This document shows positions 1 through 20,771 of a stretch of 22,189 bases of DNA, one piece after another; position 1 is the first letter of the stretch; every line of letters begins with the position of its first letter. The stretch lies in IMG/VR virus record IMGVR_UViG_2687453530_000003; one strand, written 5' to 3'. Below the pieces are notes generated by a model that did not search any database, was not told the DNA's origin, and saw only the letters and a program-made list of their open reading frames with translations. The position numbers were made by a program, and so were the translations under genes. The DNA is from a virus (taxonomy: Duplodnaviria; Heunggongvirae; Uroviricota; Caudoviricetes).

Positions 1-584
1 ATCATCCACCCAACTTAACTGAAACCAGGATGAAGTATATGCATATAAAGTTCACTTTGCCAAACTTCAGTATAAAAAACCACATAAAAAATAGGGTGTG
101 ATAAAAAATACCGTAACAATAAAGCAAAGGATTATAAATTCCGTTACAGTTACAAATGATACTCAAGAAACAATTCCTTAGGAAAAACTTATTTACAGCC
201 AATAAGTAAGACACTTATATGATATCAAGTTTTCATAAAACATAACTAGGCTAAATAGCTGCGCCTAATACCGCTACACTTTTGCCAGCCCATGTTTGCC
301 TCCGGGTATTGACCCCTTCTCTACGCAACTTCAGTTCCCACCACCAACTTTGCGGCAGCTTTGTAGGATCAATGTCTAAAAGAATAATGGTGACCGATAA
401 GAAAACAACTGAATAACTGCAAATTTTCGCTCAAAACCTTCCTGTCAGATCCATAGCGAATCAAGTGCTGAATGTCACAGTATCGAACAGAAAACAGTGA
501 CGATCTAACCCTTCAAGAATATTCTACGATTGTTCTGTTTAGGAAAAGCAAGGCGGGAAGTCGGGAGATAAGTCATTGATAAAG

Positions 585-645
585 TGGCGGAGAGAGGGGG
601 ATTTGAACCCCCGGTAGAGTTGCCCCTACTCCGGTTTTCGAGACC
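585..645 (-). tRNA. 3' fragment (~61 nt) of a tRNA-Ser (serU/CGA-like) gene; the 5' half is absent, so this is an att-core-like remnant, not a functional tRNA
   Basis: Reverse complement reads GGTCTCGAAAACCGGAGTAGGGGCAACTCTACCGGGGGTTCAAATCCCCCTCTCTCCGCCA, matching the anticodon-stem-to-CCA end of E. coli tRNA-Ser(CGA) as recalled; the sequence 5' of it does not match the tRNA. Confidence 0.6.
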
Positions 646-1388
646 GATGATACAGAGTCGAAAAATCAAAGAGTTAAAAATTTTTCTTGGAATAAATGTC
701 TTAAAATCGTACACGAAAAATCAATGAATTACATAACATTAAAGAAGAATATTCCAAGCCTTCTTGAGGCTACCACCTGTTTTCAGGTGTCATTCAGACG
801 TGATTTGCCCCAGATTGGGAAAGCACGCTTTTTTCTCAGCTATCGTCCTCTTATTTTGCCGTTACATTTCTTTTTGCACTCTAATGATTAATTTACAATA
901 ATAATATCGGTAATTATTGAGTAATAATAAATTGGTTATTGCAAATGTAATTTAATTCCATCTTCGCGTTATATTCCAATCTTTAATCTCCGCATGGAAC
1001 AAGTTGCATGCGTGACTATATTAAGACAACTTATAACCACCAAAACATTTGCTTTGCAAGCAAAAACATTGACCATTGACTCTAAGAAAATTCCGATCTA
1101 TTGTTAGGGTCATCAAAGTTACTTAACAGTATTCCGAAATGAAAATACAAAGCAAGCTAATTGTCTTATTAAACATTATCATTGCATTTATATTATTTGA
1201 GCTTTTAGCTCAAAAATTTGGTTTGAGTACATTATTTTAAAGCAAGATAAACAATATCGGGCACTCTAGTTTTTATAATTAACAATTAAACGTCCATAAA
1301 ATGTTATTTACTTTTCTTCGCTATTGTCATATCTTAATATAGTGGCTTACGCCACTCTACTTTCATCACATTTTGTACGTTTATGTAC

Positions 1389-1419
1389 TCGCCATGAAGC
1401 TCTTTCATGGCGATTTTTT
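1389..1419 (+). terminator. Rho-independent terminator: perfect 10-bp stem, 5-nt loop, T6 tract
   Basis: tcgccatgaa-gctct-ttcatggcga followed by tttttt, read directly. Confidence 0.5.
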
Positions 1420-1685
1420 ATTCTTAATCCAAGAACATACTCCCTACCTATAGCAAAATCACTTTTTGAACAAAAGAATAACGTATTTAGGTAATCATTA
1501 CGAATTTACCCTATAGGTGCTACTGGCCATTCAATATCCGGTGCAGTTGTTGTATTAACACGGTTCAGCAACACCCGATACTTTTTCCAGGCTTCCAGCA
1601 ACGAGTTTTCTTCCTCCGTTGCGATCTCCAGCCCAACAACAGTCTGAACGTACCGGGAACAGCCTCCTTCAGGGCTTGAAGGATA

Positions 1686-3938
1686 TCAATGTTCGCTTCC
1701 TGTTAACTGCCGGACAAGTGCAACCAGTTCGCTTACCTGATTTTCCAGAGTGCTGATCCGGGTGCCTGCTGTTGCCAGATTTTTACGTAGCGTTATGTTT
1801 TCCTCTTCCAGCGCGGTAACGCGACCATCTGTTTCACGGGCGACCTGAACAAGTAACCCCGTCACGGCGGCGTAGTCAACATTCAGATAACGTGTTTCTT
1901 CACGTAATTCATTGCCGTCAACCGTTGGTCCCTGCAACTCTTCACCGTAATGAGTAAACGATCCCACAGCTTCTGGTATCGCCTCCATTACTTCCTGTGC
2001 AATAACGCCAGCATAAGGCATCCCGTTTTCCCTGAGCGTGTAGGTGTATCCGTTCATTTTACGGATTGCTTTCGTCGCGTCGCTGATAACGAGAATATCG
2101 TCTTTAAGGTCGCGGTCTGATGACTGATTCAGCGTTGTGCAATTAATAGCGCCATTTACATCAAACAACTGGCCTGCTGACGTTTTTTGCGCATAAAACA
2201 GATACGCAGCAGACGTTCCAACCTCAAAAACGTTTTGTCGATCACTTGATCCCCATACTTTTGCGGCAAATGATAGTTCTGTATTACCTAAGTTCTGTAA
2301 AACAAAACGATTTCCAGTCCCTGTTTGTTTTGTAAGAGTTAAATCAACAGTTGAGTTAACCTCATCCTTGTTGATAGTGAGCGCCTGCGCTTTAGCCCCG
2401 TTAACAGCACCTGTTTTGAGTTGAACCGCGCCGTCATTACCATTTAACAGTATCTCAGCTCCGCTAAAGAAATTTTTTAGCGACAGCATCTTACTTACGC
2501 CGACTGATGAACCCAACGCCCACGCGAGAGAATTACCGGTGCTATCAAACCCACGTACAAAGCAATCCATTTTGCTATAGTCTGACGTGCTTCCAAGGAC
2601 ATCAATTCGCCCTCCGCCAGATTTTACCGGGTTAGATGTGGTTAATGACCTGACAGCAAGATCGGTAGATGAATTGAGATCGTCTACTGTTAGTAATTTC
2701 TTCCATTCCTGCGTCGTTCCATTTTCAATTGTTCTTCCCCAAAAACCGGAATTGCGGCCTCCGAACTGCACAGCATAATTTTTACTAAATTGAACATGAA
2801 TGCCGCCAAGAACCATAGAACCTGCCGGGCCGTTTGTACTGCCTGCAATTGGTATAAATTTATTAATGTTATCAGTATGCTGCGTGTTCCAGTCTCGTCC
2901 TGTTTTTGTAAGCAGTCCTAATGTCGTGTCGAGCGCTTCGGTTAAAGTAAGGTTTTTAAATTTAACTGCGCTACTTTCGCCAAGACTTAAGTTGTTTCGC
3001 GCATCTTCTACTGTTGTCGCACCTGTACCTCCTTGCCCAACAGCTAATGGCAACCAGCCAGTGCCATTATGACAACCCCACAAACCAGATTTGGAAACCT
3101 GTAAGCGTGGTGCGCCTGAAGAATACGTAGAATATACGTAAGTTGTTTCTTTTCCCTCTTCAACCCTTTCTGTTGATACATCTCTCTTCCATTCAGACCA
3201 GGTACCGCTTCCTCCTTCATATATTCGTCTATAAGTAATTCCCGGATTATTATAAGGGTAGTACACCTGAACGCAGGAAGAAGCAGTGTTGGCTCTCGTT
3301 TGGAGCACTATTAAAGCGCCCGCCAGACCGATTGGGTAATTTAATTCTTCTGTTGCGTAAGCGCTCGTTGGTTGTTGATAGAAACCAGAATATTCACCGG
3401 TAAGGGTGTTTAGGTCAGTATTAGCAAGGCCAGCTTTTTGCTCATACATTACCCGCAAGTTCGCACGTGCTTGCTCGATAGTTCTTCCACCAGTACCGCC
3501 CTGGGCTAAACCTAACGGAGACCATTGTCCAGAAGAAGAATCATAAACTCCCCAACTCCCGTTAGTATGGATTTCAAAGAAACGATCACCAGTTGGACCA
3601 TACATACGAGTTGTTGATTCATTTTGACCAAAGCGGCTTAATTCATCTCTGCGGGTATGACGTATCCATTGCGGGCCAGAACTTTGGCTGTAAATGTACG
3701 AATACAATGATTTTGTATCTGAACCAACAAATAGACCGGAATATCTTTTTGTTGACACTTCTGATCTAACTATATAACCAGAAATAAGATTATCACCGGC
3801 ACTAGACGCTACTGATGGATAACCTTTCGCTGAGATGTAAATCCTGACAAATCCAATATAACCTGATGGCTCAACAGAGATATCAGTGCAGGTCAGCCCC
3901 CCACGCCAGAGACGTGTTGCTGTGGCGACCGTCATCAC
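1686..3938 (-). CDS. Tail fibre protein fragment with C-terminal intramolecular chaperone (peptidase S74-like) domain; probably 5'-truncated, with the true N-terminus replaced at a junction inside lom near position 3890
   Basis: 750-aa ORF with GGTG-x-T-x-E-x-AR-x-NL fibre repeat motifs and a C-terminus (DRDLKDDILVISDATKAIRKMNGYTYTL...) typical of self-cleaving fibre/endosialidase chaperone domains; the first ~16 codons overlap lom out of frame. Confidence 0.7.
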   Translation of the reverse strand: MMTVATATRLWRGGLTCTDISVEPSGYIGFVRIYISAKGYPSVASSAGDNLISGYIVRSEVSTKRYSGLFVGSDTKSLYSYIYSQSSGPQWIRHTRRDELSRFGQNESTTRMYGPTGDRFFEIHTNGSWGVYDSSSGQWSPLGLAQGGTGGRTIEQARANLRVMYEQKAGLANTDLNTLTGEYSGFYQQPTSAYATEELNYPIGLAGALIVLQTRANTASSCVQVYYPYNNPGITYRRIYEGGSGTWSEWKRDVSTERVEEGKETTYVYSTYSSGAPRLQVSKSGLWGCHNGTGWLPLAVGQGGTGATTVEDARNNLSLGESSAVKFKNLTLTEALDTTLGLLTKTGRDWNTQHTDNINKFIPIAGSTNGPAGSMVLGGIHVQFSKNYAVQFGGRNSGFWGRTIENGTTQEWKKLLTVDDLNSSTDLAVRSLTTSNPVKSGGGRIDVLGSTSDYSKMDCFVRGFDSTGNSLAWALGSSVGVSKMLSLKNFFSGAEILLNGNDGAVQLKTGAVNGAKAQALTINKDEVNSTVDLTLTKQTGTGNRFVLQNLGNTELSFAAKVWGSSDRQNVFEVGTSAAYLFYAQKTSAGQLFDVNGAINCTTLNQSSDRDLKDDILVISDATKAIRKMNGYTYTLRENGMPYAGVIAQEVMEAIPEAVGSFTHYGEELQGPTVDGNELREETRYLNVDYAAVTGLLVQVARETDGRVTALEEENITLRKNLATAGTRISTLENQVSELVALVRQLTGSEH

Positions 3939-4380
3939 TTCCGGTCAGCACATCGTGCGTTTTCCCCTTATTGTCAGTTACGCGGATATAATCCCCGGAA
4001 AAAGTCGACACACGGCTGTAAGCCACACCCGCCATCGCATACGCGCTGAACCATTCATTCACGCGCACAGACGGCCCCGCCATTACGCTGAACCAGCGGT
4101 TACGAACGGAATCTTCATGCCAGCGGGTATCGCTGTAACGGGTCAGCTGACGATTCTTGTCTCCTGCATAGCTGAATGACGTCACCATCCCCAGTGTGTC
4201 CGTAAACTCATAACGGTATTTCACGTTAATCCCGTTCAGATCATCACTGCCGGGAACGTTCGTCCGGGCATGAAGATACCCCGCGCTCAGCGTGGACTGA
4301 TGTTCAGACGCCCATGCAGGCGCACCGGATACGGCCAGACAAATGGCTGCGGACAAAATGGCGGCATAAAGTTTACGCAT
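3883..4380 (-). CDS. lom: Lom/Ail-family outer-membrane protein, C-terminally truncated (165 aa versus ~206 in lambda; lacks the terminal aromatic beta-barrel signature)
   Basis: Signal peptide MRKLYAAILSAAICLAVSGAPAWA and near-identity to lambda Lom through ...NTSLAWGA, then divergence and a stop. Confidence 0.8.
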   Translation of the reverse strand: MRKLYAAILSAAICLAVSGAPAWASEHQSTLSAGYLHARTNVPGSDDLNGINVKYRYEFTDTLGMVTSFSYAGDKNRQLTRYSDTRWHEDSVRNRWFSVMAGPSVRVNEWFSAYAMAGVAYSRVSTFSGDYIRVTDNKGKTHDVLTGSDDGRHSNTSLAWGADLH

Positions 4381-4446: not shown

Positions 4447-6401
<1,955 letters not shown>

Positions 6402-6427
<26 letters not shown>

Positions 6428-8887: not shown

Positions 8888-9181
8888 ATGAAAAAAATGC
8901 TACTCGCTACTGCGCTGGCCCTGCTTATTACAGGATGTGCTCAACAGACGTTTACTGTTCAAAACAAACCGGCAGCAGTAGCACCAAAGGAAACCATCAC
9001 CCATCATTTCTTCGTTTCTGGAATTGGGCAGAAGAAAACTGTCGATGCAGCCAAAATTTGTGGCGGCGCAGAAAATGTTGTTAAAACAGAAACCCAGCAA
9101 ACATTCGTAAATGGATTGCTCGGTTTTATTACTTTAGGCATTTATACTCCGCTGGAAGCGCGTGTGTATTGCTCACAATAA
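8888..9181 (+). CDS. bor: Bor lipoprotein (serum-resistance / Iss family)
   Basis: 97 aa, lipobox LLITGC, convergent with the lysis genes as in lambda and DLP12. Confidence 0.85.
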   Translation: MKKMLLATALALLITGCAQQTFTVQNKPAAVAPKETITHHFFVSGIGQKKTVDAAKICGGAENVVKTETQQTFVNGLLGFITLGIYTPLEARVYCSQ

Positions 9182-9212
9182 TTGCATGAGTTGCCCATCG
9201 ATATGGGCAACT

Positions 9213-9674
9213 CTATCTGCACTGCTCATTAATATACTTCTGGGTTCCTTCCAGTTGTTTTTGCATAGTGATCAGCCTCTCTCTGAGGGTGAAATAATCC
9301 CGTTCAGCGGTGTCTGCCAGTCGGGGGGAGGCTGCATTATCCACGCCGGAGGCGGTGGTGGCTTCACGCACTGACTGACAGACTGCTTTGATGTGCAACC
9401 GACGACGACCAGCGGCAACATCATCACGCAGAGCATCATTTTCAGCTTTAGCATCAGCTAACTCCTTCGTGTATTTTGCATCGAGCGCAGCAACATCACG
9501 CTGACGCATCTGCATGTCAGTAATTGCCGCGTTCGCCAGCTTCAGTTCTCTGGCATTTTTGTCGCGCTGGGCTTTGTAGGTAATGGCGTTATCACGGTAA
9601 TGATTAACAGCCCATGACAGGTAGACGATGATGCAGATAACCAGAGCGGAGATAATCGCGGTTACTCTGTTCAT
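9213..9674 (-). CDS. Rz: Rz i-spanin
   Basis: [17 protein letters not shown]... near-identical to lambda Rz; start set at the internal Met of the 157-aa ORF. Confidence 0.9.
9272..9454 (-). CDS. Rz1: Rz1 o-spanin lipoprotein, embedded in Rz in the +1 frame
   Basis: 60 aa with lipobox VVVGC and a PPPPP tract, identical in layout to lambda Rz1. Confidence 0.85.
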
Positions 9675-10168
9675 TGCTGACCCCACAAACAGATTTCACG
9701 CTCAATCTCACGACGAGTCATGAGACCTTTCCATTGCTTACCGCCAGCATATGTCCAGCGACGTAGCTGATCACATGCGCCTTTGATATCGCCCTGGTTT
9801 ATTTTGCGAAGAAGCGTCGATGTTCTGAAATTGCCAGCACCCACGTTGTAAACGAATGAGTAAAGAGCGCCGCGCGTTGTTTCCGGTATATCGACTTTGA
9901 TGTACGGGTTAATTTGTCTGGCGACAGTGGCAAGGTCTTTATTCAAGAGTGCTTTGCATTCTGCTTTGGTATACGTTTTACCGAGCATGATGTCTTTTCC
10001 GGTGTGTCCGTGACATACAGTCCATACGCCAACGATATCTTTGTATGGTACGTAGCTGACACCTTCCAGACCATCGTTACCACTTGGGCCAGTAATTAAC
10101 ACTGATGCTATAGCAATTGCTCCGCCACCAATAGCAGCAGCAACGGCTTTTCGTAATGATGGAGGCAT
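9671..10168 (-). CDS. R: SAR endolysin (T4-lysozyme fold, phage 21 R type)
   Basis: 165 aa; N-terminal weakly hydrophobic Gly/Ala-rich signal-anchor-release segment [18 protein letters not shown] followed by a lysozyme domain. Confidence 0.9.
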
Positions 10169-10383
10169 TATTCACCTCTCGCAGCCTTGCGCTTATCTTC
10201 TTTAATCTTGAAATAAAGGTTTGTCAGGTACGTCAGCAGGCCAAATACCAGGCTACCCAGCACACCTATTGCTGCCCACTGTGAGGGCGTGACTTTATCG
10301 AGCAGCTGTAAAAACCAGTAACCGGCACTACCTGCTGAGGTGCCATAGGCGACACCCGTTGTTAACTTATCCATGGATTTCAT
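10168..10383 (-). CDS. S: Pinholin S21 (71 codons, with dual start MKSMDK giving antiholin and holin)
   Basis: [26 protein letters not shown]...[17 protein letters not shown] matches the phage 21 pinholin; the 5' extension of the ORF is non-coding. Confidence 0.85.
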
Positions 10384-10512
10384 AACCCCACCTCGCAGAC
10401 AAAGCGGGTGTAAATTGAGGGAATACAACGTATCGCAAAAAAGCAGAAACGTAACAGACTCGGAGTCAGTGAATAACTCAGGTATTGGGTTATCAGCTAA
10501 TATCGAGACTCA

Positions 10513-10543
10513 AAAAATGGAAAAACCCGCTCGACGGCGGGTT
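10513..10543 (-). terminator. Intrinsic terminator on the minus strand, candidate tR'-like late-leader terminator upstream of S
   Basis: Minus strand reads AAACCCGC-CGTCGA-GCGGGTTTTTCCATTTTTTG: 8-bp GC-rich stem plus U-tract. Confidence 0.45.
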
Positions 10544-10972
10544 TAAGCTGTGTGACGAAGTAACCACTCTTAACAGCATAACCAATTTTTTACGTACGTA
10601 AACCACTAAATGATATTTGCGAGAATGCTACCGAGTATTGAAAACACCACTACAAATACATAAGAAAATCTCAACAAATAACCAATAAATAATTTCCAGT
10701 GTTATTTTTAGCCGGTTTAAATTGAACCTTCAAATTATAGAGCACTTATAAATAACAGCCGTTAATATAAATTGGCTAATAGATTTATTTTTATTCAGCC
10801 AAGAGCCATGAATAGGATTCGATAGAAAAAAGTTCAGATAAAAATAGAGATCTACTTCACAAATCAAACGAGAAACTAAAACTTACATCTTGAAATAATC
10901 ACATTGATTAGATGAATATTTATCGCGCAGTGACATCATTTTTTAATAATAGTTCAAAAAAAAGGGCTCACG

Positions 10973-12055
10973 ATGAAAAAATTAACAGTGGCAATTTCTG
11001 CTGTAGCTGCATCAGTACTGATGGCGATGTCTGCTCAGGCAGCTGAAATTTATAATAAAGACAGTAACAAGCTGGATCTGTACGGGAAAGTTAATGCCAA
11101 GCACTACTTCTCCTCTAATGATGCAGATGATGGTGATACTACTTATGCCCGTCTTGGCTTCAAAGGTGAAACCCAAATCAACGATCAACTGACTGGTTTC
11201 GGTCAGTGGGAATATGAATTCAAAGGCAACCGCGCTGAATCTCAAGGTTCCTCCAAAGATAAAACCCGTCTTGCCTTCGCTGGCCTGAAATTCGGTGACT
11301 ACGGCTCCATCGATTACGGCCGTAACTACGGTGTAGCATACGACATCGGTGCATGGACCGACGTTCTGCCAGAATTCGGTGGCGATACCTGGACCCAAAC
11401 AGATGTATTCATGACTGGTCGCACCACAGGTGTTGCAACTTATCGTAACAACGACTTCTTTGGTCTGGTTGATGGCCTGAACTTTGCAGCTCAGTATCAG
11501 GGCAAAAATGACCGAAATGAAGTAACTGAAGCTAATGGCGATGGTTTCGGTTTCTCAACTACTTATGAGTATGAAGGATTCGGCGTGGGTGCAACCTATG
11601 CTAAATCTGATCGCACTAATAATCAGGTTATCTACGGTAACAACGGTCTGAATGCTTCTGGTCAAAATGCTGAAGTATGGGCAGCTGGTCTGAAATATGA
11701 TGCGAACAACATCTATCTGGCCACCACCTATTCTGAAACCCAGAACATGACTGTTTTTGGTAATAACCATATTGCCAACAAAGCACAAAACTTCGAAGCT
11801 GTTGCACAATATCAGTTCGACTTCGGCCTGCGTCCATCCGTTGCTTACCTGCATTCTAAAGGAAAAGACTTGGGTGTTTGGGGTGATCAGGACCTGGTTG
11901 AATATGTTGATGTAGGTGCAACCTATTACTTCAACAAAAATATGTCCACTTTTATTGACTACAAAATCAACCTGATTGATAAGAGCGATTTCACGAAAGC
12001 ATCTGGCGTTGCTACCGATGATATCGTTGCTGTAGGTATGGTTTACCAGTTCTAA
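10973..12055 (+). CDS. nmpC: General porin of the OmpC/OmpF family, phage-borne NmpC/Lc type (lysogenic-conversion moron)
   Basis: 360 aa, signal peptide [30 protein letters not shown]..., C-terminal ...VAVGMVYQF; sits on the strand opposite the lysis genes as in DLP12. Confidence 0.9.
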
Positions 12056-12243: not shown

Positions 12244-12465
12244 TTAATTAGAGTTATTAACAACGATATCCATCTCTAACCGGATATCTAATGCCATTAA
12301 CATCCCTTCAATTATGCCCTCAGCCTTTTGTAACCTTTTCCCGATATAACCATCAGAGCAGCAATGCTTACCTGCCAGTGACATGAATGTCATACCGACT
12401 ATATAATAATCTACTAATAAATCGTGCAAATCGCTGTTGTTCTTTTTCAGACGGGCCATGCACAA
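12244..12465 (-). CDS. Hypothetical 73-aa ORF, possibly a remnant of the sieB region; weak
   Basis: ORF only; located where sieB would lie relative to orf28 and ral, but the frame and length do not match. Confidence 0.25.
12379..12407 (+). promoter_or_regulatory. Candidate sigma-70 promoter (TGACAT-17 bp-TATAAT) reading into orf28-ral-ea10-cIII-kil-exo
   Basis: Hexamers and spacing read directly from the sequence; no experimental support. Confidence 0.3.
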
Positions 12466-12500
12466 TCTTTACTACCGCAATCCACTATTTAAGGTGATAC

Positions 12501-12587
12501 ATGGAAGAAGAATTTGAAGAGTTCGAAGAGCATCCTCAGGATGTGATGGAACAATACCAGGACTATCCGTATGACTACGACTATTGA
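12501..12587 (+). CDS. orf28: orf28-like small acidic protein
   Basis: MEEEFEEFEEHPQDVMEQYQDYPYDYDY, 28 aa, overlapping the ral start as in lambda. Confidence 0.55.
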   Translation: MEEEFEEFEEHPQDVMEQYQDYPYDYDY

Positions 12588-12771
12588 TAAAAATCAATGG
12601 TGTGGACAATTCAAGCGATGCAATGGATGCAAGCTGCAATCGGAATGCATGGTTAAGCCTGAAGAAATGTTTCCTGTAATGGATGATGGGAAATATGTCG
12701 ATAAATGGGCAATACGAACGACGGCAATGATTGCCAGAGAACTTGGTAAACAGAACAACAAAGCTGCCTGA
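12571..12771 (+). CDS. ral: Ral restriction-alleviation protein
   Basis: 66 aa, MTTTIDKNQWCGQFKRCNGCKLQSECMVKPEEMFPV..., essentially lambda Ral. Confidence 0.9.
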   Translation: MTTTIDKNQWCGQFKRCNGCKLQSECMVKPEEMFPVMDDGKYVDKWAIRTTAMIARELGKQNNKAA

Positions 12772-12953
12772 TAGTGGCCTTTATTTTTGGCATAAATAAC
12801 AGAATAAACACTGCACTGTGTATTCATTCCAACGAGTGAATACACGGAGCAATGTCGCTCGTAACTAAACAGGAGCCGACTTGTTCTGATTATTGGAAAT
12901 CTTCTTTGCCCTCCAGTGTGAGGGCGATTTTTTATCTATGAGGATATGAATAG

Positions 12954-13559: not shown

Positions 13560-13680
13560 ATTCACTATCGCCACTTTTATTGGCGATGAAAAGATGTTTC
13601 GTGAGGCCGTCGACGCTTATAAAAAATGGATATTAATACTGAAACTGAGATCAAGCAAAAGCATTCACTACCCCCCTTAA
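13528..13680 (+). CDS. kil: Kil, host cell-division inhibitor (50 codons here; the stop appears shifted by the adjacent deletion junction)
   Basis: MDQTLMAIQTKFTIATFIGDEKMFREAVDAYKKWILILKLRSSKSIH..., overlapping the cIII end as in lambda. Confidence 0.8.
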   Translation: MDQTLMAIQTKFTIATFIGDEKMFREAVDAYKKWILILKLRSSKSIHYPP

Positions 13681-13873
13681 CGATGAAACCATGCAGGAGA
13701 TTAACACTCTGCTGATCGCCCTGGATAAAACATGGGATGACGACTTATTGCCGCTCTGTTCCCAGATATTTCGCCGCGACATTCGCGCATCGTCAGAACT
13801 GACACAGGCCGAAGCAGTGAAAGCTCTTGGATTCCTTAAACAGAAAGCCACTGAGCAGAAGGTGGCAGCATGA
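13626..13873 (+). pseudogene. gam: gam-bet deletion remnant: the first ~15 codons of gam joined out of frame to the last ~60 codons of bet
   Basis: ATGGATATTAATACTGAAACTGAGATCAAGCAAAAGCATTCACTA (gam start) abuts AACGATGAAACCATGCAGGAGATTAACACTCTGCTGATCGCCCTGGATAAAACATGGGATGAC (bet 3' end); the bet C-terminus ...[15 protein letters not shown] precedes exo. Confidence 0.8.
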
Positions 13874-14550
13874 CACCGGACATTATCCTGCAGCGTACCG
13901 GGATCGACGTGAGAGCTGTCGAACAGGGGGATGATGCATGGCACAAATTACGGCTCGGCGTCATCACCGCTTCAGAAGTTCACAACGTGATAGCAAAGCC
14001 CCGCTCAGGAAAGAAGTGGCCTGACATGAAAATGTCCTACTTCCACACCCTGCTGGCTGAGGTTTGCACCGGTGTGGCTCCGGAAGTTAATGCTAAGGCG
14101 CTGGCCTGGGGAAAACAGTACGAGAACGACGCCAGAACCCTGTTTGAATTCACTTCCGGCGTGAATATTACTGAATCCCCGATCATCTATCGCGACGAAA
14201 ATATGCGCACCGCCTGCTCTCCCGATGGTTTATGCAGTGACGGCAACGGCCTTGAACTGAAATGCCCGTTTACCTCCCGGGATTTCATGAAATTCCGGCT
14301 CGGTGGTTTCGAGGCAATAAAATCGGCTTACATGGCCCAGGTGCAGTACAGCATGTGGGTGACGCGAAAAGATGCCTGGTACTTTGCCAACTATGACCCG
14401 CGCATGAAGCGTGAAGGCCTGCATTATGTCGTGATTGAGCGGAATGAAAAGTACATGGCGAGTTTTGACGAGATGGTGCCGGAGTTCATCGAAAAAATGG
14501 ACGAGGCACTGGCTGAAATTGGTTTTGTATTTGGGGAGCAATGGCGATGA
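13870..14550 (+). CDS. exo: Exo, lambda 5'-3' exonuclease (Red alpha), intact
   Basis: 226 aa, [40 protein letters not shown]...GFVFGEQWR. Confidence 0.95.
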
Positions 14551-15286: not shown

Positions 15287-15508
15287 ATGGCAGACATCAT
15301 TGATTCAGCATCAGAAATTGAAGAATTACAGCGCAACACAGCAATAAAAATGCGTCGTCTGAACTACCAGACTGTATCTGCCACTCATTGTTGTGAGTGT
15401 GGCGATCCGATAGATGAACGAAGACGCCTGGTCGTTCAGGGTTGTCGGACTTGTGCAAGTTGCCAGGAGGATCTGGAGCTTATCAGTAAACAGAGAGGTT
15501 CGAAGTGA
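15287..15508 (+). CDS. orf73: TraR/DksA-family C4 zinc-finger protein (lambda Orf73-like RNA polymerase secondary-channel binder)
   Basis: 73 aa with C-x-x-C...C-x-x-C (CECGDPIDERRRLVVQGCRTCASC). Confidence 0.8.
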   Translation: MADIIDSASEIEELQRNTAIKMRRLNYQTVSATHCCECGDPIDERRRLVVQGCRTCASCQEDLELISKQRGSK

Positions 15509-15912
15509 GCGAAATTAACTCTCAGGCACTGCGTGAAGCGGCAGAGAAAGCCGGTGAAGATAAGTGGCAGGCTAAAAAAATAAATGGTGATTTTTTCGTT
15601 ATTCGTCACGGTAGTTATACAAGACAGCATGGCTACACATCGAATCAACCCATTGCGGAGATTGATTGTAAGCCAGTCCGGGATTTTGTTGCCAAGGCTA
15701 ATCCGGCTACCGTGCTGGAATTACTGGATGAACTGGAAGCAGCAAAAAAGCGCATTGCAGAACTGGAAGCGCGGGAAATACTGCTCCCGGAACGTAGCAG
15801 CATGCTTCATCGAACAGATTTTCACGATGATTACCAAACGGTAATGGCATACAAAGTTTCTGAAGTCATCGATGCAATCCGCGCTACTGGCATTCGCATC
15901 AAAGGAGAGTGA
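15505..15912 (+). CDS. ea22: Ea22-like protein, short variant with coiled-coil centre
   Basis: GTG start overlapping the orf73 stop; N-terminus MSEINSQALREAAE and C-terminus ...GIRIKGE resemble lambda Ea22 termini as recalled. Confidence 0.5.
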   Translation: MSEINSQALREAAEKAGEDKWQAKKINGDFFVIRHGSYTRQHGYTSNQPIAEIDCKPVRDFVAKANPATVLELLDELEAAKKRIAELEAREILLPERSSMLHRTDFHDDYQTVMAYKVSEVIDAIRATGIRIKGE

Positions 15913-15913
15913 G

Positions 15914-16669
15914 ATGATTCACTACCACGGTGGGCCTATTACTCCTGATACGTGCGCAATGAGAGCATGGAAAGGGCGACATGCGTTTATCAGTTTTGCG
16001 CATTCAGGCCAGATCAATCTCGCGGCTGAATACTGTCAGTCGTTCGCGCTGGACAACGGTGCATTCACCGCCTGGAAAGCAGCTGGCAAAAACAAAATCG
16101 ACTGGAGCGATTACTACGAGTTTGTTGCTCGCTGGAAGAATCACCCAGGATTCGATTTTGCCATTATCCCGGATATTATTGATGGCGGAGAGGAGGAAAA
16201 TGATGCGCTTCTGAATGAGTGGCCTCACGGAAAACTAGCTGGCGTTCCAGTGTGGCACATGAATGAAAGTGACGCGCGATTTATTCATTTGTGCAATGAG
16301 TTTCCGCGAGTGGCTATCGGTAGTTGTGGCGACTATGACGTAAAGCGCCCAACTCTTGCGGTAGCCAGAATGAAAGACCTGATTCGTCACATTGTTGATG
16401 GGCATGGTCAGCCGGTTACGAAACTACATGGATTGCGCATGTTAAATCCGCTGATATTCACAAAATTACCCTTAGCCAGCGCAGATAGTACGAACGTCGC
16501 TCGAAACATCGGTATTGATAAAGCCTGGTCTGGGGCTTATGCACCTGCAAGTAAAGAGACACGCGCAGCATTAATGGTAGAACGGATTGAGGCACACAAT
16601 AGCCCTGGTTCTCTTGCGTATTGTGAACAACGCGACCGCTTTGAAATGCAATTGCAACTAGCAGTTTAA
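15914..16669 (+). CDS. Queuine tRNA-ribosyltransferase-like (TGT/DpdA-family) protein; candidate 7-deazaguanine DNA transglycosylase
   Basis: 251 aa after a strong ribosome-binding site (AAAGGAGAG); segments FALDNGAF, IIPDIIDGG, VAIGSCGDY, KLHGLRMLNP resemble TGT-fold motifs as recalled; no C-x-C-x-x-C...H zinc motif. Confidence 0.5.
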   Translation: MIHYHGGPITPDTCAMRAWKGRHAFISFAHSGQINLAAEYCQSFALDNGAFTAWKAAGKNKIDWSDYYEFVARWKNHPGFDFAIIPDIIDGGEEENDALLNEWPHGKLAGVPVWHMNESDARFIHLCNEFPRVAIGSCGDYDVKRPTLAVARMKDLIRHIVDGHGQPVTKLHGLRMLNPLIFTKLPLASADSTNVARNIGIDKAWSGAYAPASKETRAALMVERIEAHNSPGSLAYCEQRDRFEMQLQLAV

Positions 16670-16679
16670 GGACTAACAA

Positions 16680-17477
16680 ATGACCACTATTACCAAAGAA
16701 CGTATTGAATTGTTCATTAAAAATCCGCTTGAAAACGGGCTTACTCGTGGCGAACAAATGGAACTGGCACGAATTGCACTGGCATCACTGGAACGCGAAC
16801 TGATTCGCCACGAGCATGCCAAATGGTCTGACTCCACATTTGGCTGCGTTGGCCCCATTGGTCCACTGAAACACCTCTCAAAAGAGGCTCTGGAAGCCGC
16901 AGCCGAACCAGACGATCTCAGCGAGTGGGCTGATATGCATTTCCTGTTGTGGGATGCACAGCGCCGTGCTGGCATCAGCGATGCTGAAATTACCGCTGCT
17001 ATGGAAGATAAATTGAAGATCAACATGGAGCGCCAGTGGCCTGAACCAAAAGATGGTGAGCCTCGCTTGCACATTAAAGAACCCGGCAACTCTCCGGTAA
17101 TTCCGGATGGTTTATCCACGGTATGCGCTGAGGCTTATCAGGTTGTAGGAGTTATGGCAGATGCGCTTGGTGTATTCGGTGATGCAGCAGTACAGAAAGT
17201 TCTGGATAACCTGTCACAGCAAAAACTTGTTCACAGAGATGTGCTGCCGTTCTCGCTTCCGGTGACTCCGGATGGTTGGATAAGCTGTAGTGAGCGAATG
17301 CCGAAAGAAACGGGTGACATTATTGTTGTTTCGGATGGCATTGTAATGTCCGGGATTTCTTATTCTCGTCGTGACGGGTTCTATATAGCCGCATTGGAGT
17401 ACGACGACGATGAGCCAATTGGCGGTGTAACCCACTGGATGCCTCTACCAGAACCGCCTCGATTAAAGGAGCTATAA
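16680..17477 (+). CDS. Two-domain protein: N-terminal DUF550-like (MazG-like dATP/dGTP pyrophosphohydrolase family) plus C-terminal DUF551-like domain
   Basis: 265 aa; family assignment by recalled similarity to prophage DUF550/DUF551 proteins. Confidence 0.5.
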   Translation: MTTITKERIELFIKNPLENGLTRGEQMELARIALASLERELIRHEHAKWSDSTFGCVGPIGPLKHLSKEALEAAAEPDDLSEWADMHFLLWDAQRRAGISDAEITAAMEDKLKINMERQWPEPKDGEPRLHIKEPGNSPVIPDGLSTVCAEAYQVVGVMADALGVFGDAAVQKVLDNLSQQKLVHRDVLPFSLPVTPDGWISCSERMPKETGDIIVVSDGIVMSGISYSRRDGFYIAALEYDDDEPIGGVTHWMPLPEPPRLKEL

Positions 17478-17780
17478 TAGTGAACTATTATATCTATTTG
17501 TATTAAAAGAGTTTTTATAAAATAAATCTCCCAAAGCATGTAAAAACACTGTTAATCTTAACGTGTGTGAAACGTGAAGAGAGGTGTTGAAATGAGCATT
17601 CATGATTTGTGTGAAGATCAAGAGCAATGGGCTATGCAGACCCTTATGGGATCAGGAGTTCTTGCAAGGTGCAGAATCCATAACGATGTAATTTTAGACA
17701 GCGGAAATGATGCTTCTTCTGCTTATAAATTAGGAACTTACCTATATCAAAAAGATAATAGCTGCAACTTATTCAATACT

Positions 17781-17785
17781 CTTAC
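17781..17785. repeat. IS2 target-site duplication, left copy (CTTAC)
   Basis: Identical 5-mer immediately flanks both IS2 ends. Confidence 0.85.
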
Positions 17786-17796
17786 TGGATTTGCCC

Positions 17797-18702
17797 CTAT
17801 ATTTCCAGACATCTGTTATCACTTAACCCATTACAAGCCCGCTGCCGCAGATATTCCCGTGGCGAGCGATAACCCAGCGCACTATGCGGATGCCATTCGT
17901 TATAATGCTCGAACGCCTCTGCAAGGTTCTTTGCTGCCGTTAACCCGTCTGGTTTGGGCATGATACTGATGTAGTCACGCTTTATCGTTTTCACGAAGCT
18001 CTCTGCTATTCCGTTACTCTCCGGACTCCGCACCGCCGTGTTCTTCGGTTCAAGTCCCAACATCCGGGCGAACTGGCGTGTTTCATTAGCCCGGTAGCAT
18101 GAACCATTATCCGTCAGCCACTCCACTGGAGACGACGGAAGATCGTTGCCGAAGCGGCGTTCCACCGCTCCCAGCATGACGTCCTGTACTGTTTCACTGT
18201 TGAAGCCGCCGGTAGTGACCGCCCAGTGCAGTGCCTCACGATCACAGCAGTCCAGCGCGAACGTGACACGCAGTCTCTCTCCGTTATCACAGCAGAACTC
18301 GAACCCGTCAGAGCACCATCGCTGATTGCTTTCTTTCACGGCCACTCTGCCTGTATGTGCCCGTTTCGATGGCGGTACAGCAGGTTTTCGCTCAAGCAAC
18401 AGCGCATTCTGGCGCATGATCCGGTAAACACGTTTGGCATTGATCGCAGGCATACCATCAAGTTCTGCCTGTCTGCGAAGCAGCGCCCATACCCGACGAT
18501 AACCATACGTGGGCAGCTCTCCGATAACATGGTGTATACGGAGAAGCACATCCGTATCATCAGTGTGACGACTGCGGCGGCCATCCATCCAGTCATCGGT
18601 TCGTCTGAGAATGACGTGCAACTGCGCACGCGACACCCGGAGACAACGGCTGACTAAGCTTACTCCCCATCCCCGGGCAATAAGGGCGCGTGCGCTATCC
18701 AC
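17797..18702 (-). CDS. insD: IS2 transposase OrfB (InsD; DDE catalytic domain, expressed as an OrfAB fusion by -1 frameshift)
   Basis: 301 aa, [34 protein letters not shown].... Confidence 0.9.
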
Positions 18703-19025
18703 TTTTTTGCCCGTCCATATTCAACGGCTTCTTTGAGGAGTTCATTTTCCATCGTTTTCTTGCCGAGCAGGCGCTGGAGTTCTTTAATCTGCTTCATGGC
18801 GGCAGCAAGTTCAGAGGCAGGAACAACCTGTTCTCCGGCGGCGACAGCAGTAAGACTTCCTTCCTGGTATTGCTTACGCCAGAGAAATAACTGGCTGGCT
18901 GCTACACCATGTTGCCGGGCAACGAGGGAGACCGTCATCCCCGGTTCAAAGCTCTGCTGAACAATTGCGATCTTTTCCTGTGTGGTACGCCGTCTGCGTT
19001 TCTCCGGCCCTAAGACATCAATCAT
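18660..19025 (-). CDS. insC: IS2 OrfA (InsC; HTH DNA-binding regulator)
   Basis: [53 protein letters not shown].... Confidence 0.9.
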
Positions 19026-19116
19026 CTGTTCTCCAATGACTAGTCTAAAAACTAGTATTAAGACTATCACTTATTTAAGTGATACTGGTTGTCTGGAGAT
19101 TCAGGGGGCCAGTCTA

Positions 19117-19504: not shown

Positions 19505-19723
19505 ATGTACTTGACACTTCAGGAGTGGAACGCACGCCAGCGACGCCCAAGAAGCCTTGAAACAGTTCGTCGATGGGTACGCGAGTGCAGGATATTCCCT
19601 CCTCCGGTTAAGGATGGAAGAGAGTATCTGTTCCACGAATCAGCGGTAAAGGTTGACTTAAATCGACCAGTAACAGGTAGCCTTTTGAAGAGGATCAGAA
19701 ATGGGAAGAAGGCGAAGTCATGA
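19505..19723 (+). CDS. xis: Excisionase Xis
   Basis: 72 aa, MYLTLQEWNARQRRPRSLETVRRWVRECRIFPPPVKDGREYLFHESAVKVDLNRP.... Confidence 0.95.
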   Translation: MYLTLQEWNARQRRPRSLETVRRWVRECRIFPPPVKDGREYLFHESAVKVDLNRPVTGSLLKRIRNGKKAKS

Positions 19724-20771
19724 GCGCCGGGATTTACCCCCTAACCTTTATATAAGAAACAATGGATATTACTGCTACAGGGACCCAAGGACGGGTAAAG
19801 AGTTTGGATTAGGCCGAGACAGGCGAATCGCAATCACTGAAGCTATACAGGCCAACATTGAGTTATTTTCAGGACACAAACACAAGCCTCTGACAGCGAG
19901 AATCAACAGTGATAATTCCGTTACGTTACATTCATGGCTTGATCGCTACGAAAAAATCCTGGCCAGCAGAGGAATCAAGCAGAAGACACTCATAAATTAC
20001 ATGAGCAAAATTAAAGCAATAAGGAGGGGTCTGCCTGATGCTCCACTTGAAGACATCACCACAAAAGAAATTGCGGCAATGCTCAATGGATACATAGACG
20101 AGGGCAAGGCGGCATCAGCCAAGTTAATCAGATCAACACTGAGCGATGCATTCCGAGAGGCTATAGCTGAAGGCCATATAACAACAAACCCGGTCGCAGC
20201 CACTCGCGCTGCAAAATCAGAGGTAAGGAGATCAAGACTTACGGCTGACGAATACCTGAAAATTTATCAAGCAGCAGAATCATCACCATGTTGGCTTAGA
20301 CTTGCAATGGAACTGGCTGTTGTTACCGGGCAGCGAGTTGGTGATTTATGCGAAATGAAGTGGTCTGATATCGTAGATGGATATCTTTATGTCGAGCAAA
20401 GCAAAACAGGCGTAAAAATTGCCATCCCAACAGCATTGCATGTTGATGCTCTCGGAATATCAATGAAGGAAACACTTGATAAATGCAAAGAGATTCTTGG
20501 CGGAGAAACCATAATTGCATCTACTCGTCGCGAACCGCTTTCATCCGGCACAGTATCAAGGTATTTTATGCGCGCACGAAAAGCATCAGGTCTTTCCTTC
20601 GAAGGGGATCCGCCTACCTTTCACGAGTTGCGCAGTTTGTCTGCAAGACTCTATGAGAAGCAGATAAGCGATAAGTTTGCTCAACATCTTCTCGGGCATA
20701 AGTCGGACACCATGGCATCACAGTATCGTGATGACAGAGGCAGGGAGTGGGACAAAATTGAAATCAAATAA
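19701..20771 (+). CDS. int: Integrase Int (tyrosine recombinase), lambda type, full length
   Basis: 356 aa, MGRRRSHERRDLPPNLYIRNNGYYCYRDPRTGKEFGLGRDRRIAITEAIQANIELFSG...; overlaps xis as in lambda. Confidence 0.95.
   Translation: MGRRRSHERRDLPPNLYIRNNGYYCYRDPRTGKEFGLGRDRRIAITEAIQANIELFSGHKHKPLTARINSDNSVTLHSWLDRYEKILASRGIKQKTLINYMSKIKAIRRGLPDAPLEDITTKEIAAMLNGYIDEGKAASAKLIRSTLSDAFREAIAEGHITTNPVAATRAAKSEVRRSRLTADEYLKIYQAAESSPCWLRLAMELAVVTGQRVGDLCEMKWSDIVDGYLYVEQSKTGVKIAIPTALHVDALGISMKETLDKCKEILGGETIIASTRREPLSSGTVSRYFMRARKASGLSFEGDPPTFHELRSLSARLYEKQISDKFAQHLLGHKSDTMASQYRDDRGREWDKIEIK

Follow-up and report, generated by a model that had tools for sequence, protein, structure and literature searches.

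Introduction

The 7-deazaguanine modifications of DNA have been proposed to arise by a post-replicative base exchange (PMC10516641), in which DpdA proteins of the tRNA-guanine transglycosylase (TGT) superfamily are the transglycosylases. In phage CAjan the deletion of dpdA led to a complete loss of dPreQ0 from the phage DNA (PMC6884629), and the DpdA of phage 9g, present alone in Escherichia coli, was found to put host preQ0 into plasmid DNA at 0.03-0.3% of the guanines (Hutinet et al. 2019). For the bacterial DpdA the roles of single residues have been described: D95 acts as general acid/base, D130 and H181 recognise the base and D256 is the nucleophile. This enzyme has a conserved CXCX2CX22H zinc site, which is also found in TGTs, and it needs DpdB and ATP (PMC10164549). 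Here we present the analysis of a DNA stretch of 22,189 nucleotides (IMG/VR record IMGVR_UViG_2687453530_000003), referred to as the window, which carries a gene for a small DpdA-like protein (gene 1, 15914-16669, + strand, 251 amino acids) directly followed by a gene for a DUF550-DUF551 protein (gene 2, 16680-17477, + strand, 265 amino acids).

Phages that encode DpdA alone have been described before. Hutinet et al. (2019) placed 76 such DpdA-only phages in their 'group 3' and found that the gamma-proteobacterial singleton DpdAs form a cluster of their own. Their Supplementary Data 1 lists, as DpdA without other genes of the pathway, the proteins of SPN3UB (YP_007011024), SfI (YP_009147480), HK106, SEN1, BTP1, PEAT2 and 7-11. 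The same authors considered that singleton DpdAs could draw on host preQ0, and flagged a possible divergence of these proteins for more work. No later paper dealing with the lambdoid DpdA clade was found in the literature, including the DpdA papers from 2024 onward.

Gene 1 encodes a DpdA-like protein

The ATG of gene 1 at position 15914 comes one base past the stop codon of an Ea22-like gene, which ends at 15912. Direct reading of the sequence revealed a Shine-Dalgarno site, AAGGAG, at 15902-15907 (+ strand), 6 nucleotides (nt) before the ATG. The product starts with MIHYHGG and is listed by the Prokaryotic Genome Annotation Pipeline (PGAP) as 'hypothetical protein' (WP_000582229.1). A common start residue was found in 31/31 aligned homologues, all of which open with MIH(Y/F)HGG. 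An earlier, sequence-only reading of the window had described gene 1 and gene 2 as two tightly packed open reading frames (ORFs), the first with a strong ribosome-binding site, and both are present as described.

Four independent lines of evidence, a PHROG match, an alignment with the CAjan DpdA, the predicted fold and the conserved residues, place gene 1 in the DpdA branch of the TGT superfamily. Residues 1-248 matched PHROG 887, annotated as 'queuine tRNA-ribosyltransferase', with an E value of 2.6e-101. The family of gene 1 is large: clustering at 90% identity gives over 7,700 groups, and at 50% there are 1,561 representative clusters, from which we drew 76 diverse relatives with 31-53% identity to gene 1 as a set for conservation analysis. 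When a profile of these 76 relatives was aligned with the CAjan DpdA using hhalign, the match had a probability of 98.7% and an E value of 2.7e-16 over 173 columns. The alignment paired LDNGAFS, PVWH, KLHGLRM and SADST of the gene 1 family with LDSGAFS, PCFH, KLHAFGI and SCDSS of CAjan, so that D47 and D191 of gene 1 fall on the LDSGAF and SCDSS segments, respectively. Significant homology to phage DpdA proteins was also seen at the level of single sequences, with 35% identity to the 7-11 homologue (BLASTP E 8e-32), 67% to SfI gp34 and 92% to SPN3UB gp54 (YP_007011024). A tblastn search with gene 1 at a threshold of 1e-5 against 50,697 phage records returned 107 records with a relative.

A first AlphaFold2 run with a shallow alignment, limited to relatives of at least 65% identity, gave a poor model (predicted local distance difference test, pLDDT, of 63) whose Foldseek matches were meaningless. 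With the diverse alignment the model reached a pLDDT of 96.3 and a predicted template-modelling score of 0.92. It comprised eight beta-alpha units and is thus predicted to adopt the (beta/alpha)8 TIM barrel of the TGT superfamily.

Three residues, D47, H172 and D191, were invariant among the 76 relatives, and A50, P86, D87, I89, G91, H115 and G136 were kept in at least 90% of them. Three segments had been singled out in the sequence-only reading as resembling the substrate pocket of TGT, namely FALDNGAF (residues 44-51), IIPDIIDGG (84-92) and VAIGSCGDY (133-141). All three were recovered, in the columns that show the highest conservation in the family. In the model the conserved residues D47, H172, D191, D87, H115 and G136 are all placed at C-terminal strand ends. 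We propose D47 and D191, together with D87 or D90, H115 and H172, as putative catalytic residues. The order D...D...H...D in gene 1 matches D95/D130/H181/D256 of the bacterial DpdA, and judged by sequence gene 1 appears to possess the active-site aspartates that characterise the TGT superfamily and DpdA.

A structural zinc site of the type CXCX2CX22H was not found in the 251-residue sequence of gene 1, in agreement with the sequence-only reading. That reading had regarded the loss of the zinc motif as the pattern of phage and bacterial DpdA enzymes alike; this holds for the phage DpdA of CAjan, which also lacks it, but not for the bacterial DpdA, in which the site is kept (PMC10164549).

We concluded that the assignment of gene 1 as DpdA-like is right, though it is already in the literature: the family is a known one, and a protein 92% identical to gene 1 was listed as DpdA in 2019.

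Evidence weighed against a role in DNA modification

We regard gene 1 as probably, though by no means securely, a minimal zinc-less member of the TGT superfamily, belonging to the 'singleton DpdA' clade of temperate gamma-proteobacterial phages, that would insert a host 7-deazaguanine into DNA, with gene 2 being a separate matter. A number of observations weigh against this interpretation. Scans of gene 1 with Pfam, NCBIfam and PADLOC gave no match, and phmmer and hmmsearch runs with gene 1 and two family profiles against the sequences of the Protein Data Bank (PDB) gave noise only. The alignment of the family profile with the single E. coli Tgt sequence, a weak template as it consists of one sequence, revealed no similarity, and Foldseek returned generic TIM barrels only. 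The base-recognising aspartate is ambiguous between D87 and D90, hhalign pairing the mid-barrel aspartate of CAjan with D90. The phages of the same group also give a mixed picture: of the two group-3 phages whose DNA was analysed, Orion, which has a host without the preQ0 pathway, was unmodified, and 7-11 contained 50 dADG per 10^6 nt, corresponding to only ~0.02% of G (PMC6884629). At the present locus the pL promoter and N are gone and gene 1 is preceded on the + strand by three terminator-like sites. Finally, the role of the lambdoid singleton clade itself would be transferred by analogy from other DpdA proteins.

Some of these negative results carry little weight for a phage DpdA. The absence of a Pfam match and of a zinc motif is uninformative, because the validated CAjan DpdA likewise has neither. 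The CAjan protein also gave no match against PDB sequences. PF01702, the TGT family, was matched neither by gene 1 nor by any of the 76 relatives, which were scanned for a transitive link.

Genomic context of the dpdA genes

We searched the window and 160 related IMG/VR loci by tblastn with the CAjan proteins and found no FolE, QueD, QueE or QueC. Since no genes for preQ0/G+ synthesis are co-encoded, gene 1 falls in the DpdA-only group. The sequence-only reading had noted this absence, and had drawn from it a dependence on the queuosine pathway of the host, which is the same idea as that of Hutinet et al. (2019) for 'DpdA-only' phages.

Links to the pathway were seen elsewhere in the family. 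In the metagenomic representative P0256 (335 amino acids) an N-terminal QueD/PTPS domain (residues 7-134, E 1.2e-24) is fused to the DpdA-like domain. Unless it is an artefact of gene calling, this protein would tie the family to preQ0 synthesis in the manner of a 'Rosetta stone'. Another family representative, P0241, is a fusion of a Dam methyltransferase and a DpdA-like domain. In the T1-like phage Phleasolo (Rogunavirinae; locus L086, 4522-5825) a gene annotated as VUT family lies directly upstream of a DpdA-like gene whose product is 42% identical (E 2e-44), although its Pfam match to VUT/YhhQ was weak (E 0.07). A lambdoid contig from IMG/VR (L069, 3528-4753) likewise has a VUT/YhhQ-like gene directly upstream of its DpdA-like gene. 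The VUT family is that of the preQ0 importer YhhQ. The pairing of a VUT/YhhQ-like gene with dpdA suggests that import of the precursor is coupled to insertion of the base where synthesis genes are lacking.

Neighbours acting on DNA were frequent as well. In the SfI-like clade, with 66-69% identity to gene 1 (loci L119-L169), an orphan DNA methyltransferase lies directly beside dpdA in 35/80 loci. These belong to three unrelated families, MT-A70 (21 loci), a fusion of a C5-methylase with Dam (9) and an N6/N4 methylase (5). The association is suggestive but no proof, because the loci were not dereplicated and such regions are known 'moron' slots. The dpdA site may be an interchangeable slot for DNA modification genes. 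Over all 164 related loci the upstream neighbour of dpdA was most often an Ea22-like gene (53 loci), and a TraR/DksA gene was adjacent in 32.

The same context bears on the question whether a protein with the TGT fold might here have diverged to another substrate. Such a protein could resemble Cap10 and conjugate 7-deazaguanine to proteins or remove it, thereby interfering with type IV CBASS (cyclic-oligonucleotide-based anti-phage signalling system); it could also be a tRNA transglycosylase or a plain DNA glycosylase. We consider a divergence of this kind unlikely. The only significant sequence relatives for which experimental data exist act on DNA (CAjan, with the E value of 2.7e-16 given above, and 7-11, with dADG), neither a Cap9/QueC-like nor a CD-NTase gene was found nearby, the genes beside or fused to dpdA encode DNA methyltransferases and QueD, and the zinc subdomain of TGTs and of bacterial DpdA is missing from gene 1. 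A related proposal concerns the clade as a whole, which might be something other than a simple preQ0 insertase: it could use another host base (preQ1 or a purine analogue) or a target other than DNA (as in Cap9/Cap10 of type IV CBASS, or QatABCD), and operate alongside the neighbouring orphan methyltransferases in an anti-defence slot. To this we assign a low probability.

Gene 2 and its association with dpdA

Gene 2 is translated from a start codon preceded, 7 nt upstream, by a Shine-Dalgarno site (AAGGA, 16668-16672, + strand). The sequence-only reading had described its product as a DUF550-DUF551 fusion, and this was borne out by Pfam: residues 42-137 (16803-17090, + strand) matched DUF550 (PF04447, a MazG-like dATP/dGTP pyrophosphohydrolase domain) with E 1.1e-41 and 141.4 bits at a cutoff of 23, and residues 199-260 (17274-17459, + strand) matched DUF551 (PF04448) with E 7.3e-14 and 52.8 bits at a cutoff of 22. 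The whole protein is a mosaic of Eaa type. PHROG matches divided it into four pieces, each with different PHROGs: an N-terminal module of 34-48 residues, DUF550, a linker module and DUF551. The N-terminal 34-residue module (16680-16781, + strand) was delimited by tblastn of sub-segments in 80 IMG/VR loci, and PHROG 3323, 10451 and 660 matched on residues 1-48. PGAP splits gene 2 into an N-terminal pseudogene fragment and a DUF550 protein of 234 amino acids starting at a non-ATG codon.

The biochemistry of DUF550 is known only from an Acinetobacter phage with a Z-genome, in which it is a dGTP/dATP pyrophosphohydrolase (PMC12884076, PMC8342488). In gene 2 we read an acidic pattern E69xxE72...E82xxD85, the spacing of which corresponds to E35/E38/E50/E53 of MazZ. 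The hidden Markov model score is above the gathering cutoff and four acidic metal ligands are apparent. The DUF550 domain of gene 2 is probably an active MazG-like pyrophosphohydrolase of deoxynucleoside triphosphates (dNTPs); gene 2 may be active because the ExxE...ExxD pattern is kept.

The sequence-only reading had further suggested that the two genes form a functional pair, and in this form the proposal would be a two-gene DNA modification module, in which DUF550 aids DpdA, for example via the dGTP pool. Both genes are on the same strand with 10 nt between them, the identical arrangement is present in 87 complete E. coli genomes, and another base-replacement pathway, that of phage SH-Ab 15497, includes a DUF550 protein that hydrolyses dGTP and dATP. 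We counted the neighbours of dpdA in IMG/VR loci, which were not dereplicated, in three bands of dpdA identity. Where dpdA was at least 98% identical, DUF550 was found directly downstream in 13/33 loci, although dpdA was almost always followed by the 34-residue N-terminal module of gene 2. At 86-94% identity DUF550 was directly downstream in 2/47 loci and upstream in 1/47. At 66-69% identity it was adjacent in 0/80 loci and within 4 kb in only 8/80. Thus adjacency of dpdA and DUF550 was not conserved across the family.

Individual phages gave the same result, as no DUF550 was found next to dpdA in SPN3UB, SfI, Eeyore or Vibrio phage D453. SPN3UB does have a downstream 'Eaa' gene at the same 10-nt spacing, a likeness that could be taken in favour of a module, but this gene lacks DUF550; in SfI, Eeyore and Vibrio phage D453 dpdA has other, unrelated neighbours. 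The first 34 codons of gene 2 accompany dpdA in most of the near-identical loci (L006-L035), and the sequence after these codons is swapped among loci, being DUF550 plus DUF551, DUF551 only or something unrelated. With a constant N-terminal module and an exchanged remainder, a recombination boundary must lie inside the coding sequence of gene 2.

The distribution in complete E. coli genomes was also uneven. Some part of a 2.1-kb query comprising the Ea22-like gene, dpdA and gene 2 was matched in ~3,000 of 5,426 genomes, dpdA in 204 (~4%) and the whole arrangement in the 87 mentioned above. It follows that one or more of the flanking modules are much more widespread than dpdA, the DUF550 segment not being counted separately. 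The chemistry of DpdA, moreover, needs no dNTP hydrolase, because it is proposed to be a post-replicative base exchange. On these grounds the functional pair did not hold: the two-gene module is largely refuted by the gene-neighbourhood statistics, and we regard it as very improbable. The position of gene 2 beside dpdA is best explained by modular recombination in the ea and nin regions and not by functional coupling. A role of gene 2 in 7-deazaguanine chemistry was considered and rejected; gene 2 is a neighbour of gene 1 and no demonstrated partner.

The surrounding prophage remnant

All 22,189 bases of the window recur unchanged in E. coli APEC O78 (NC_020163.1) and in many other avian and porcine E. 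coli genomes. It contains a lambda-like prophage at the lambda attachment site, between ybhC and ybhB/bioA, and the early-left operon is read along the + strand of the window. The early-left genes follow the order ral (12571-12771, + strand), a DUF2528 gene, cIII, kil, a bet fragment, exo (13870-14550, + strand, intact), DUF1317, DUF1382, a hypothetical gene, a TraR/DksA zinc-finger gene (15287-15508, + strand; PF01258, E 4.2e-9) and the Ea22-like gene directly upstream of gene 1 (15505-15912, + strand, 135 amino acids; PF13935, E 2.9e-17). Gene 1 and gene 2 are followed by an ea8.5-like fragment, the insertion element IS2, a small ORF, xis, int (19701-20771) and ybhC.

The gene order thus agrees with the lambda ea region described in the sequence-only reading, with the correction that the ea8.5-like ORF is cut by IS2 and that the prophage is a deleted remnant. 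The ea8.5-like gene (17574-17796, + strand; PF20735, E 1.1e-7, residues 14-65) is a pseudogene according to PGAP. IS2 occupies approximately 17785-19115 (- strand), as judged from the annotation of an IS3-like IS2 transposase, with terminal inverted repeats at 17794-17826 and 19075-19107. The mechanically called ORF at 17574-17963 consists of the N-terminus of ea8.5 running on into IS2 sequence.

A deletion junction was located at 12244-12600, where a C-terminal fragment of the Q antiterminator gene (12244-12462, - strand) directly meets the region upstream of ral. From this it follows that N, pL, the immunity region (cI, cro), cII, O, P, nin and most of Q have been lost. A small, very acidic ORF (MEEEFEEFEEHPQDV...) is located at 12501-12587. 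As bet is cut to a C-terminal fragment (13670-13873), the Red recombination system is incomplete, though exo is intact. At a second junction the tail tip gene J survives as a fragment (4447-5382, - strand) that abuts a truncated gene for the large subunit of the terminase (5381-6427, - strand), which means that the entire block for head and tail morphogenesis has been deleted. The prophage is a defective, cryptic remnant.

Several other genes are retained. To the left of the second junction lom (3781-4380) and a tail-fibre gene (411-3716) remain, and the late region at 8888-12055 keeps accessory genes for host interaction, namely bor (8888-9181) and a gene for an OmpC/NmpC-like porin (10973-12055). 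The lysis cassette at 9213-10383 is intact.

Without pL and N, and with the immunity region, the replication region and most of Q also gone, normal early expression of gene 1 in this window is doubtful. Both genes could then be silent cargo of a decaying prophage, with no current function at this locus. The loss of genes from N to nin and of most of Q at the ral junction, the truncation of bet, the terminase large subunit, J and ea8.5 and the insertion of IS2 all fit such decay. Terminator-like hairpins on the + strand at 12906, 13346 and 15209, between ral and gene 1, would have to be passed without N for antitermination. On the other hand the two ORFs are undamaged and show 100% identity among many strains, and a strong sigma-70-like site (GTGACA-18-TATAAT, 11/12 matches, 12378-12407, + strand) inside the Q fragment faces the remnant early-left operon and could drive it. 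We hold silence at this locus to be a tentative possibility that deserves serious consideration. It is compatible with the insertion of 7-deazaguanine by gene 1 and its relatives, as it concerns this locus only.

Proposed function

The most likely function of gene 1, argued from analogy with characterised DpdA proteins, would be to put host-made preQ0 into DNA at a low level and so protect it from restriction. The mechanism is inferred by homology, with the chemistry as shown for the bacterial DpdA. In an intact phage dpdA would be transcribed together with the delayed-early genes after infection or induction, as part of the pL operon in the present arrangement and of the nin region in SPN3UB. 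The enzyme would bind duplex phage DNA and flip out a guanine. D191 would attack C1' and displace the guanine, giving a covalent enzyme-DNA (glycosyl-enzyme) intermediate, and D47 would serve as general acid/base and protonate the leaving guanine. A 7-deazaguanine of the host would then resolve the intermediate; with preQ0 from FolE-QueD-QueE-QueC the product would be dPreQ0, and preQ1 or another base might possibly be used instead. In this way dPreQ0 or dADG-type bases would come to make up a small fraction of the DNA and blunt restriction. A low stoichiometry of modification is expected, as in 7-11.

RefSeq labels the gene 1 family 'hypothetical protein', and neither Pfam nor NCBIfam has a model for it. 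If the proposed function is true, many temperate phages of enteric pathogens carry a low-level, host-dependent epigenetic mark based on 7-deazaguanine. This would bear on the evasion of restriction, on modification-dependent defences such as GrwAB and on artefacts in nanopore sequencing. For the window itself, the annotation of gene 1 is upgraded and the proposed two-gene system is removed.

Comparison with known systems

The closest described counterpart of gene 2 is the DUF550 protein MazZ of the Z-genome phages (Acinetobacter phage SH-Ab 15497), with which it shares PF04447 and the ExxE...ExxD acidic pattern. Unlike MazZ, gene 2 is not found in a context of PurZ, DatZ and DUF5664; its DUF550 is fused to DUF551 and forms one of the modules in a lambdoid Eaa-type protein that has been shuffled.

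For gene 1 we compared four systems. Bacterial TGT and archaeal ArcTGT (PF01702) have no match to gene 1 at the sequence level, and their zinc subdomain is missing from it. These enzymes are directed to tRNA, whereas the closest characterised relatives of gene 1 act on DNA. The bacterial DpdA of the Dpd restriction-modification system (S. Montevideo, PDB 7UI4) is larger, with 413 amino acids and four insertions. In contrast to it, gene 1 has no zinc site, no PADLOC match and no dpdB or dpdC as neighbours. Membership of gene 1 in the bacterial Dpd system was rejected, as PADLOC gave no match and the neighbours are lambdoid early genes.

The DpdA1 proteins of the Queuovirinae (CAjan, 9g, Bas24) are validated DNA guanine transglycosylases that insert preQ0. 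Gene 1 and the CAjan DpdA have in common the motifs LDxGAFS, KLH and S(A/C)DS(T/S), and neither has the zinc motif or a Pfam match. The CAjan protein has 306 amino acids and is encoded in a FolE-QueD-QueE-QueC-YhhQ cluster, with ~30% of G modified, whereas gene 1 has 251 and stands alone. The 107 phage records found by tblastn are too few to include the Queuovirinae, which suggests that the relationship is a distant one.

The group-3 DpdA proteins (SPN3UB, BTP1, SEN1, HK106, SfI, 7-11) are nearest to gene 1, and nothing substantive distinguishes it from them. As to location, the cryptic E. coli prophage has gene 1 in its pL/ea region, and SPN3UB has its copy in the nin region. Gene 1 and the group-3 proteins share a similar length, the lack of preQ0 synthesis genes in the phage and a host with the full queuosine pathway.

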